NCBI GenBank assembly: GCA_035221665.1
Contig: CM069164.1
Coordinates: 12,338,001 to 12,402,000, forward strand
DNA: 64,000 nt
DNA from: Okamejei kenojei
Taxonomy: Eukaryota
Direction of reading: 5' to 3'
Part shown: piece by piece, positions 20,967 through 27,594 of the stretch
Layout: the number at the start of each line of letters is the position of its first letter
Numbering within the stretch: position 1 is the first letter of the stretch
Program-made: the position numbers and the translations under genes
Notes under the pieces: generated by a model
Databases searched by the model: none
What the model was told of the DNA's origin: nothing
Seen by the model: the letters and a program-made list of their open reading frames with translations, nothing else

Positions 20967-21212
20967 GTGTAGGAAGGAACTGCAGATGCTGGTTTAAATA
21001 TAAGATAGACACAAAAATGCTGGAGAAACTCAGCGGGACAGGCAGCATCTCTGGGGAGAAGAAATGGGTCACGTTTCGGGTCGAGACTTCTTCTGACTTT
21101 AGACAGAATCTGAAGAAGGGTCTCGACCTGAAAGATCACCCATTCCTTCTCTCCAGAGATGCCTCCTGTCCCGCTGAGTTACTCCAGCATTTTATGTCTA
21201 ACTTCGATTTAA
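20967..21212. mobile_element. 246-bp palindromic Penelope-pLTR-derived element with 12-bp TSD and a hammerhead-like core
   Basis: AATATTCTGTCA at 20955-20966 and 21213-21224; the arms are inverted copies of the pLTR seen at 4500, 40930 and 52110; CTGAAGA..GAAA core at 21110-21137. Confidence 0.85.
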
Positions 21213-21553
21213 AATATTCTGTCATTTGACATGAGAAAACTCCACATTTTTCTGATGTGTAAGTACTTCATTATTGGTTTGTAAATTAAAAGGGAATATA
21301 TCTCCTGAACAGAGCACAGGTCCATGCTATGGGAAGTCTTGTGTTTTGCAAGAAAGCTGACCCCAAGAATGCGGGATGGAAAATGGGCAGTCAAATGTCT
21401 TGTTGCAATTTAGGTGACATCGGTCGTTCTCTATAGTATTGCTCAAGGTGAGACACTTTTGAAGCATGGTTTTAAACAAAAAGACTCAGTAACACTGATT
21501 TCTCCTCTCAGAAATAGCTGAAATAGTGATTGGTGCAAAGCACCTCAGTGGCT

Positions 21554-21689
21554 TCTTCTTCTTTCGTGTGGAGTGCACAGCCTAAAGTTGTTGGACAACT
21601 TGGTCTATTTGATCTCCGTTTCTGCACGTCGAGTTGATTGCATTAGTCGAAACAGGGCGGATCACGTGAAGGTTGCAATCTTCCACCCC
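21554..21689 (-). mobile_element. ~135-nt non-autonomous retroposon (possibly Ingi/Vingi-related) with (GAA)n tail and 12-13-bp TSD
   Basis: (C)ACCTCAGTGGCT at 21541-21553 and 21689-21701; minus-strand tail ACACGAAAGAAGAAGA; 3' stem-loop AAGTTGT-CCA-ACAACTT at 21585-21601. Confidence 0.85.
21636..21689 (-). ncRNA. Minimal HDV/CPEB3-like self-cleaving ribozyme (54 nt) at the 5' end of the retroposon
   Basis: GGGGUGG-AA-GAUUGCA-ACC-UUCACGU-GAU-CCGCCCU-G-UUUCGA-CUAA-UGCAAUC: 7-bp P1 with G1.U wobble, 7-bp P2, P3 with one C.A mismatch, L3 UUCACGU, J4/2 CUAA. Confidence 0.8.
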
Positions 21690-23389
21690 ACCTCAGTGGC
21701 TAAAGGGACAATGATTTGGTTCTACAAATCCGGTTATACAAAAAACTGCCAGTGAACACAAGGATTCAAAGTAATACATTCTCTATTCCAGTTATGATCA
21801 AGTTTCGTCAAACTAGCTGTCTCTCAATGCTGATGACAAAAATACATTTGTCAATCTGGAACCATTTTGTGTGAAGAGAACCACCAATCTTATCGAATGA
21901 ACCTGTTGCTATTTTTAGAAACATTTAATTTATTTTTTCATGGAGAGAAAATAGTCTATGGTAGTTCAATTAAAGTGTCAGCCTGATGGGATGCGGTCAT
22001 AGTTTATATGTAAGAAATACTGTGGGGACTTGAGTTGTTCTCTCAATTACATCAGACAGGTGGTGAGCAGGTTAGTTTTCAGACACTTACATTATGTTGT
22101 TGGAACAGACACGGGGCTCCCATGATGATAAACTTTACGTCTTTCCAACAGGTGATTGTTGGAAACTACAATTATGTTTTGTTAAACTGCTTAGCAGGAT
22201 GGTTTACACATTACTCAATGACATTGAGTTGGGGTAAAAATGGTGCTGATTCCTCCATCACAAACGTACTGTTCCACAGAAGTAAATAAAATGGGATTGA
22301 AGCAGACACAGATCCCATTTTCAGCCTATTGCTCCATTTGCAAGATCAAAAAGGTTTTAAGTGCAATCTGCTGAGAGGTAGTGGTTGGGAGAACCGCCAT
22401 CTTCATATTCTTGAATGTTTAAAAAATCATATTCTTGCTCGTGAGGAACTTTGACACAATCTCAGAACATTCTGACTAGGTAAAATACCACATGGAACCT
22501 GAAGCATTTCTGTTGCATGTATCGGGTCCAGACTTTCCAGTTAAGAGTTATAGCATGTCCATATAGTCATTATTCATCCTGTGAAGCTGCTTGGGGAGCC
22601 CCCGTAAATAGTAGCAGGAACCGTCAATCCTCCTCAAACATCAGTAAAAGATGGACATAAAATCTTATCTTACAAAATCAAAGAAAATTTACAATACAGA
22701 AGGACACTCAAGATGCAACTTTTCTTCATGTACTCCTCCCAATTTATCCTGTCTTCCTGTTTATTTAAGCCCTCTTAGTTTAATGCATAATTTATTCAAA
22801 ACTTATATCCACATAACCTCTTGTTTTGGGGAAAAAAAACATTTGCTCCAATTTACTTGGCTGTAATTTTGCAGTCTTTCCTAACATCCTTAAGTCTTTT
22901 CAGCACCCTCTCCATTGTAATTGCAATCTTTTCTATAATATGGCTACTAAACCGTTTGTAATGTTAAAGTGGTGGTCAATTAGTATTGTCTGCAGTTCTA
23001 TCGTAACTTTCCTGCCTTTATATTCTGGGGGCACATAAAAATTGCTGATGTTGGAACCTTAAGCAAAAAAACTAAGTGCTGGAGGAACTCAGCAGATCAG
23101 GTAGCATCTGTGAAGGGAATAAACAGGTGACGTTTTAGTTGGGGAGTCTGCTTTTACATTCTATATTGTATTCTATCGCCTCAACACAAAGTACAACATT
23201 CTGATGCCTTTTAAGCGCCATTTGACATCTGTTATCTTTAAGGACCTTTGGACATACACTCCCAAGATTCCTTTGTTCATCTACATAACTGTATTCTTCC
23301 ATTTATTCGCTGCCTTTAGTACGTTCAAAAAAAATCCTTAAATAACTCAAATTTTCATCTTTTAAGGCCAAGACTTTCGGTTTAAAGGC

Positions 23390-25994: not shown

Positions 25995-27594
25995 CAGTGG
26001 CTTGCAAAAGTTTTCATACCCCTTGACCTTTTCCAGATTTTGTCACGTTACAACCACAAACGTAAATGTATTTTATTGGGATTTTATGTGATAGACCAAC
26101 ACAAAGTGGCGCATAATTGTGAAGTGGAAGGAAAATGATACATGGTTTTCAAATGTTTTTACAAATAAAAAACTGAAAAGTGTGGCGTGCAAAAGTATTC
26201 AACCCCCTTTACTCTGATACCCCTAAATAAAATCCAGTGCAACCAATTGCCTTCAGAAGTCACCTAATTAGTAAATAGAGTCCACTTGTGTGTAATCTAA
26301 TCTCAGTATAAATGCAGCTGTTCTGTGAAGGCCTCAGAGGTTTGTTAGAGAACATTAGTGAACAAACAGCATCATGAAGCCCAAGGAACACACCAGACAG
26401 GTCAGGGATAAAGTTGTGGAGAAGTTTAAAGCAGGGTTAGGTTATAAAAATATCCCAGCTTTGAACATCTCACGGAGCACTGTTCAATCCATCATCCGAA
26501 AATGGAAAGAGTATGGCATAACTGCAAACCTACCAAGACATGGCCGTCCACCCAAACTGACAGGCCGGGCAAGGAGAACATTGATCAGAGAAGCAGCCAA
26601 GAGGCCCATGGTAACTCTGGAGGAGCTGCAGAGATCCACAGCTCTGGTGGGAGAATCTGTCCACAGGACAACTATTAGTCGTGCACTCCACAAATCGGGC
26701 CTTTATGCAAGAGTGGCAAGAAGAAAGCCATTGTTGAAACAAAGCCATAAGAAGTCCCATTTGCAGTTTGCCACAAGCCATGTGGGGGACACAGCAAACA
26801 TGTGGAGGAAGGTGCTCTGGTCTGATGAGACCGCAATTGAAGTTTTTGGCCTAAATGTAACACGCTTTGTGTGGCGGAAAACTAACACTGCGCATCACCC
26901 TGAACACACCATCCCCACTGTGAAACATGGTGGTGGCAGCATCATTCTGTGGGGATGCTTTTCTTCAGCAGGAACAGGGAAGCTGGTCAGAGTTGATGGG
27001 AAGATGGATGGAGCCAAATACAGGGCAATCTTGGGAGAAAACCTGTTAGAGTCTGCAAAAGACTTGAGACTGGGGCGGAGGTTCACCTTCCAGCAGGACA
27101 ACTACCCTAAACACAATTGAATGGTTTAGATCAAAGCATATTCATGTGTTAGAATGGTCCAGTCAAAGTCCAGACCTAAATCCAATTGAGAATCTCTGGC
27201 AAGACTTGAAAATTGCTGTTCACAGACGCTCTCCGTCCAATCTGACTGAGCTTGAGCTATTTTGCAAAGAAGAATGGGCAGAAATTTCAGTCTCTAGATG
27301 TGCAAAGCTGGTAGAGACATACCCCAAAAGACTTGCAGCTGTAATTGCAGCGAATGGTGGTTCTACAAAGTATTGACTCAGGGGGGCTAAATACTTTTGC
27401 ACGCCACACTTTTCAGTTTTTTATTTGTAATAAAATTTGGAAACCATGTATCATTTTCCTTCCACTTCACAATTATGCACCACTTTGTGTTGGTCTATCA
27501 CATTAAATCCCAATAAAATACATTTACGTTTGTGGTTGTAACGTGACAAAATGTGGAAAAGTTCAAGGGGTATGAATACTTTTGCAAGCCACTG
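25995..27594 (+). mobile_element. Near-full-length Tc1 DNA transposon (1600 bp), 213-bp TIRs with IR/DR structure, TA TSD
   Basis: TA-CAGTGGCTTGCAAAAG...CTTTTGCAAGCCACTG-TA. TIRs at 25995-26207 and 27382-27594 differ at about 10 positions by eye. Each TIR has inner and outer direct repeats (TGCAAAAGTATTCA.CCCC). Confidence 0.97.
26374..27376 (+). pseudogene. Tc1 transposase, DD(34)E type, disrupted by a frameshift near 27115
   Basis: Paired-like HTH, GRPPK, WSDE, KHGGGS, QQDN and SPDLNPIENLW motifs are split over ORFs 26374-27120 and 27146-27376. Confidence 0.93.

Follow-up and report, generated by a model that had tools for sequence, protein, structure and literature searches.

The retroposon described here, a short insertion in the genome of Okamejei kenojei, is probably an internally deleted derivative of a Vingi-type LINE, V4, and was likely copied by Vingi protein; its head is predicted to cleave itself and its ends are predicted to pair. 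It lies within the window, i.e., the 64,000-nt stretch of contig CM069164.1 (assembly GCA_035221665.1, positions 12,338,001 to 12,402,000) that was analysed. The class to which the element belongs is already known. What appears to be new, as not found in the literature searched, is an HDV-like head without P4 at the 5' end of an animal LINE, a conserved pair of arms after the ribozyme and before the tail of LINEs (i.e., an end helix), and the link between Vingi-type heads and the CPEB3 ribozyme model.

The element occupies 136 nt of the minus strand (21554-21689) and belongs to subfamily A of its family (see below). A 12-nt TSD flanks it, seen as direct repeats at 21690-21701 on the 5' side and at 21542-21553 on the 3' side. 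That is, the preliminary description of an insert between direct repeats with the helix order of HDV holds, since the letters are as described and the 12-nt repeats are confirmed. A contig joint from 21515 to 21761 was considered as an empty site and rejected, because it is larger than the element. Elsewhere in the window, a Tc1/mariner transposase fragment is located at 26362-27120 (plus strand).

All parts of the element given in the following are on the minus strand. Nucleotides 1-54 (21636-21689) form a predicted P4-less HDV-like ribozyme, a reading based on a descriptor match with its null model and on covariation. Here, P1 pairs 21689-21683 with 21660-21654, P2 pairs 21680-21674 with 21642-21636, and P3 pairs 21673-21671 with 21663-21661; L3 occupies 21670-21664, P1.1 is the C22-G37 pair (21668 with 21653), and J4/2 spans 21643-21646 with the predicted catalytic C44 at 21646. 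The nested double pseudoknot of P1, P2, P3 and P1.1, including a 7-bp P1 and G1.U, is present with one broken pair, i.e., a G28-to-A change at 21662, a state of this copy and not of the family, disrupts the middle pair of P3. A 5-nt loop replaces P4, and the head of V4 is already of this form. The stretch in common with the 5' end of V4 (nt 1-72) covers 21618-21689, while that in common with its 3' end (21554-21593) comprises the last codons, the stop codon (21584-21582), a short 3' UTR and the tail. A predicted end-to-end helix joins a 5' arm at 21621-21630, which begins 5 nt past P2, to a 3' arm at 21570-21579. The element finishes with a 5-nt end motif followed by an (AAG)n tail (21554-21569), as do the 3' ends of the LINE families V1, V2 and V4.

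A 15-nt core of the head has 13,139 exact matches in the genome (reversed control: 1), a count in which mutated copies are missing and the much rarer V4 heads are included; the V4 5' probe has 29 matches in the genome. BLAST of the element against the genome yields 1,308 candidates. Among the matches listed, 44 of the first 50 copies start at G1 (at least 6 of the 7 letters G1-G7), i.e., 34/40 fetched head-core copies and 10/10 of the copies L061-L070, such that the coincidence of the 5' boundary with the start of P1, pointed out before for the window copy, extends to the family. TSDs are present in 25/40 sampled head-core copies and in 27/30 best BLAST copies. Position 28 (window position 21662) is a G in 33/33 in-register copies, which makes G the family base, as had been anticipated, and the C.A mismatch of the window copy not the family state; the same mismatch recurs in 3 further copies when the 30 BLAST hits closest to the window are considered. 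G28 accounts for more than 98% of the contig depth in every one of four public runs, the respective data being contigs, from which RNA starts are not readable.

At least two subfamilies can be distinguished, namely A (J4/2 CUAA), which includes the window copy, and B (CGAA), which is 2 nt longer. The J4/2 of V4 reads CUAA, as in subfamily A, and one subfamily A copy is nested inside the V4 copy L283. In subfamily B (copies L061-L090), the predicted catalytic C is part of a CpG and has frequently decayed; the following position is a U in subfamily A and V4, by which such decay is avoided. A strictly intact ribozyme core is left in only 13/40 sampled copies. Several apparently truncated copies (among them L092, L104, L110 and L113) end near nt 78, where they adjoin other abundant repeats; one of these is a hairpin repeat family that is also found in the window (21023-21184) and looks like an insertion hot spot. 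An Rfam match to AEV_CRE at 21023-21184 was dismissed, being far below the cut-off and inside this abundant hairpin repeat.

A short Ingi/Vingi protein motif, used as a genome query, has 100 matches (control: 0), and these led to four single-ORF LINE families, including V1, V2 and V4. V4, with 720 candidates in the genome and a length of 3.05 kb, has both ends in common with the element, i.e., nt 1-72 (92% to copy L277, 85% to copy L279) and the last 38-40 nt including the tail (84-92%). The V4 loci L278, L279, L280 and L283 show head, endonuclease stretch, C-terminal stretch and tail in this order; an RT domain was detected in L280, and an RNase H search of the V4 C-terminal piece gave no match. 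As its nt 1-72 and last ~38 nt are common to V4, the element is most likely a bipartite non-autonomous LINE, present as dispersed, TSD-flanked copies that are too short to code. By sequence comparison, it is most likely an internal-deletion derivative of V4. Given the shared ends, mobilisation in trans by the partner protein is likely, and the Ingi/Vingi-type partner suggested in the preliminary description can be named; V1 and V2 carry the same tail motif and could also mobilise the element. As parents, V1, V2 and V5 were ruled out, since only the end motif and the fold are in common with the element. Loci from a PF14529 search of the genome comprise Nimb-like, CR1-like and other LINEs, and 0/30 of those examined share the element's ends. 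Exclusion patterns for a LINE with the exact head or tail returned only subfamily B and damaged short copies. The copies L031-L042 form a two-ORF LINE family with many similar members, which we take to be Nimb/I-like.

According to PMC13708176, Vingi elements are defined by a single ORF with APE and RT, the absence of RNase H and a length of ~3.1 kb. Both V1 and V4 show this architecture. For V1, EN and RT were found without an RNase H match, and the length is 3.18-3.20 kb in 5/6 copies measured. V1 is a very young Vingi-type family with copies ~99% alike (L191-L197, L149); its full-length copies L192, L193, L195 and L196 start at G1 and have TSDs visible in their flanks. V2 is 69% identical to V1. 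The reading frame is broken in all V1 and V4 copies examined; the frameshifts seen in every V1 copy examined may be real or assembly errors. In an RT tree, V1 and V4 cluster (100/99) with unnamed EN+RT proteins of ~1000 aa and are separate from the Nimb-like and CR1-like rows, where the tree is based on 195 columns, carries a long-branch warning and is without V2, V5 and named Vingi/Ingi proteins. Single internally deleted copies of V2 (L152), V4 (L282) and V5 (L296) keep both ends or the head, i.e., internal deletions arise often.

Neither a tRNA gene nor a Pol III A or B box nor a tRNA-, 5S- or 7SL-derived head was found in the element, in agreement with its first reading as a SINE-sized retroposon headed by a ribozyme. 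That reading stands insofar as the element is non-autonomous and has no Pol III head, but it is not a SINE that gained a ribozyme, because the V4 LINE already possesses the P4-less head. It is highly improbable that an independent small-RNA head was joined to a Vingi tail to form a true SINE: although the element is SINE-sized and abundant and its nt ~79-97 have no clear counterpart in V4, its head is the LINE's own 5' end, and single TSD pairs around the V4 loci L279, L280 and L283 argue against V4 heads as secondary insertions.

A derivative that consists of the two ends of V4 resembles NARTc and RIME, i.e., it is short, takes its first ~75 and last ~30-40 nt from a LINE, and has an HDV-like fold with a predicted cut at +1. 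NARTc is described with 263 nt, of which the first 77 and the last 30 are common to L1Tc (PMC3383444). In contrast, the element has an animal host, about half the length, no P4, an (AAG)n tail and a Vingi-type partner without RNase H, and its cleavage is predicted. Internal-deletion derivatives of Vingi are reported for the Vingi-1_EE family (PMC5786205). Unlike SINE2-1_ACar and SINE2-1_AMi, the element lacks a tRNA head. The Vingi head of SINE2-1_AMi (supplement of PMC5786205) is directly followed, behind P2, by a hairpin and then by the same kind of 5-nt end motif and a purine tail; judged by its letters, the part labelled there as unknown 3' resembles the 3' end of a Vingi element.

With minimal HDV-like and theta ribozymes, the head shares the lack of P4 and the size of ~54 nt. 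In PMC10879173, these are placed to nearly 99% in Caudoviricetes phages, often beside tRNAs, with a eukaryote set limited to human, mouse and protists; here, in contrast, the minimal fold stands at the 5' end of an animal LINE and of the derivative of this LINE. Some metazoan LINEs and SINEs are known to use HDV-like or hammerhead ribozymes (reviewed in PMC6765202). A Vingi ribozyme was not found in the literature searched, while Repbase, Dfam, patents, Kojima 2011, Ruminski 2011 and Riccitelli 2014, outside that search, may describe it or the family of the element.

From its fold, we infer that the head of the element cleaves itself before G1. A strict HDV descriptor, drawn up with the element already known, matches the 64-kb window once, placing G1 at 21689 and a catalytic-type C at 21646, and does not match any of 150 equally long dinucleotide-Markov windows (both strands searched). 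The heads of V1 and V2 show the same 7/2/7/3/7/3/7 geometry with P4 and with different letters, and that of V1 has the canonical two-pair P1.1. For 8 heads of this genome, 7/18 pairs change on both sides. When 8 Vingi-type heads including two metagenome LINEs are compared, this holds for 12/18 pairs, and 96.5% of cells are paired (slid controls: 31-45%); the rows are related, such that these values correspond to a few independent events. Covariation across eight Vingi-type heads thus backs the HDV/CPEB3-like fold proposed in the preliminary description. In L3, U20, C24 and G25 are invariant in alignments A1 and A3, as is the C..A of J4/2.

A search with the Rfam HDV-like and CPEB3 models, which had been suggested as a check, gave no ribozyme match for the window copy; the curated models include P4. 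Respective scores for the other heads are 17.5 bits for V4 (cut-off 44), 31.6 bits for V1 with HDV-F-prausnitzii (cut-off 44, E 1.8e-4) and 31 bits for N5 (L239:5028-5079) with the CPEB3 model (cut-off 35, E 6e-7), while a gathering score is passed only by a metagenome head (L374; 55.6 bits, cut-off 35). The element's J4/2 (CUAA) deviates from the descriptor CRRA given for HDV-like ribozymes in PMC6326823; CUAA does occur in the Rfam HDV-F-prausnitzii consensus. Applied to metagenome loci, the descriptor found a head in 4/27 (2 distinct elements) and had 3 matches in the reverse-strand control; the remaining metagenome heads were picked by eye. MFE folding, a method that cannot draw the pseudoknot, gave no support for subfamily A.

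Within the 33-copy set, in which positions 13-27 were set by the search pattern and which therefore says nothing on L3, C44 is kept in 31/33 copies and A46 and A47 in 33/33. All three are also kept in V4 and in subfamilies A and B, and the few fixed changes of the head (positions 8, 32 and 45) are all compatible with the fold. These observations speak against the head being mainly an internal Pol II promoter with its start at G1, like Pr77, and with an inherited fold that may be weak or dispensable. The same holds for the covariation of the helices between families, a feature not required of a DNA promoter; V4, A and B differ by too few changes to show selection within the short family. We consider the promoter explanation unlikely, although it has precedent, as the same 77 nt (Pr77) of L1Tc and NARTc act as both promoter and ribozyme (PMC3383444) and bipartite LINE derivatives are expected to be Pol II transcripts by Kojima 2018. 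Furthermore, the family N5 amplified despite a non-canonical 6-bp P1, and precise 5' ends are compatible with either route.

N5 is a second short non-autonomous family (~140-170 nt, 890 candidates; loci L304-L333, L454-L463, L230 and L239), which is derived from the LINE V5 and has a P4-less, CPEB3-like head. In many of its copies, a deletion between 9-nt repeats has removed 12 nt of the catalytic junction. J4/2 is missing in 28/30 N5 loci that were found with a query itself carrying the deletion, while both copies met by chance (L230 and L239) are intact. The loss is thus no evidence for dead master copies, and we withdrew it as proof of dispensable cleavage.

Besides the predicted ribozyme, the preferred reading involves a pairing of the two ends. 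In each family, an arm 4-5 nt past P2 complements an arm that ends just before the 5-nt motif and the tail. The comparison comprised 15 natural copies that represent 8 families (V4 together with A and B, V1, V2, N5 and the metagenome families M1-M4). The own-family duplex is better than every other-family partner in 10/15 copies and is reached by at most 12/1000 shuffles in 9/15. The 5 copies that failed the other-family test are two of V4 and one each of M1, M2 and M3. The 3' stem-loop noted in the preliminary description is only part of this structure, as the longer helix joins the arm after the ribozyme to the arm before the tail. A 7-bp hairpin at 21585-21601 spans the deletion junction, with a 5' strand missing from the V4 3' end. 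Read from the sequence, the window copy has 7/10 end-helix pairs left and the subfamily B copy L087 has 10/10, a fixed-register count that discriminates poorly, since other families reach 8-9/10 pairs with wobbles counted. The helix is weaker in the abundant subfamily A (whole-element z of -0.7 and +0.5, vs. -2.2 for B).

Alternatively, the ribozyme is real and the ends are joined by Vingi protein binding each of them, with complementary arms as a by-product of palindrome or composition. The arms of V4 indeed contain a common palindrome, which makes them direct repeats as well, and the good pairing across families goes along with 5' arms that are purine-rich and 3' arms that are pyrimidine/G-rich. 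However, the arms of V1, V2, N5, M1 and M4 are non-palindromic and differ from each other, yet they pair best with their own 3' end and do so at nearly the same spacing. In addition, the V5 arm was predicted before the V5 head was seen, and N5, its short family, has a 12-bp arm close to that prediction. We therefore regard joining by protein alone as rather doubtful.

Insertions of V4 bear on the proximity of the ends. An inverted 5' piece is found in 11/48 V4 loci, where 30/48 loci had only 1.5 kb of upstream sequence and two 30-nt inverted matches (L280, L291) were left out of the count. Of these inversions, 7/11 begin at nt 72-81 of 3,050, i.e., beside the 5' arm; the respective insertions, with an inverted ribozyme head at their 5' end, are L217, L223, L228, L229, L233, L293 and L294. 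Because the forward part begins only at nt 2630-2732 in 5/7 of them, the second priming occurred at a distance of ~2.6 kb on the RNA, next to the 5' arm. Seven inverted heads carry the A32 of V4 and four extend into the V4-only UTR, which points to V4 RNA as their template; A32 also arises in short copies (6/33). The inversions show that the ends are close during insertion, which is proximity and not base pairing as the holder, and they are in this respect compatible with protein-joined ends. Pairing of the ends would explain both that derivatives keep the two LINE ends and that V4 inversions are primed beside the 5' arm. A literature search for panhandles or twin priming at LINE ends returned one Alu paper only.

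Taken together, the internal-deletion derivative of V4 would propagate as follows. A copy would be transcribed, mostly as read-through RNA, and the 54-nt P4-less HDV-like fold would cut just before G1 to leave a structured 5'-OH end. The arm past P2 would then pair with the arm before the 5-nt motif and the (AAG)n tail, by which the RNA would be closed and its tail presented. Finally, the Vingi endonuclease-RT would nick the DNA, prime on the tail and insert the copy with a ~12-nt TSD. The cis-acting module of such a panhandle would comprise an active 5' HDV-like ribozyme, the end-to-end helix, and the 5-nt motif with the tail.

The head also resembles the CPEB3 ribozyme. Positions 1-38 of the element number as in CPEB3 (U20, U21, C22, A23, G25, U26, G37, U38; numbering of PMC4836649), and the statement of the preliminary description that L3 is the mammalian CPEB3 loop proved right, as L3 agrees with the CPEB3 ribozyme given in PMC4836649, and so does P1.1, which consists of a single C-G pair plus U.U. 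That is, the core of nt 1-38 is the same as in CPEB3 (RF00622), while the letters of P1, P2 and P3 differ, the element is without P4 and the window copy fails the model; furthermore, CPEB3 is a fixed intronic copy, unlike the dispersed element. A closer match is provided by L374, the 5' end of a Vingi-type LINE on a metagenome contig (3117-3189), which is the head that passes the RF00622 cut-off and in which 35 of the first 37 ribozyme positions equal the consensus. Vingi-type heads on the metagenome contigs L375 and L376 were grouped with L374 as matches to the CPEB3 model. The pattern of L374 is also that of the Vingi-2_Gav and Vingi-2_SPur heads, and Vingi 5' ends in the same supplement carry the L3 and P1 pattern of the element (PMC5786205). 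The human genome holds traces of Vingi, namely X12_LINE (PMC5753468).

Because Vingi-type heads match the Rfam CPEB3 model, a domesticated Vingi 5' end would be the simplest origin of the CPEB3 ribozyme. Among the matches listed by the literature search, no paper treats the CPEB3 ribozyme together with Vingi. The wider proposal, i.e., that Vingi LINE RNAs across animals are panhandle modules of which the element is the minimal form, and that a Vingi 5' end was domesticated to become the mammalian CPEB3 ribozyme, is in our estimate evenly balanced between being right and wrong.

If the head cleaves, the genome of O. kenojei would hold self-cleaving motifs without P4 in their thousands, a kind for which reports are so far almost confined to gut phages, and the intact-looking copies, about a third of those sampled, could cut the host transcripts around them. 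The end-to-end helix, if true, would provide a rule by which a non-LTR retrotransposon is recognised, one that we did not find in print, and would account for the bipartite derivatives that Vingi makes. It is also relevant to Vingi-1 gene-writing systems, the donor RNAs of which carry both UTRs (PMC13708176). The CPEB3 match, in turn, offers a testable origin for the best-known human ribozyme.
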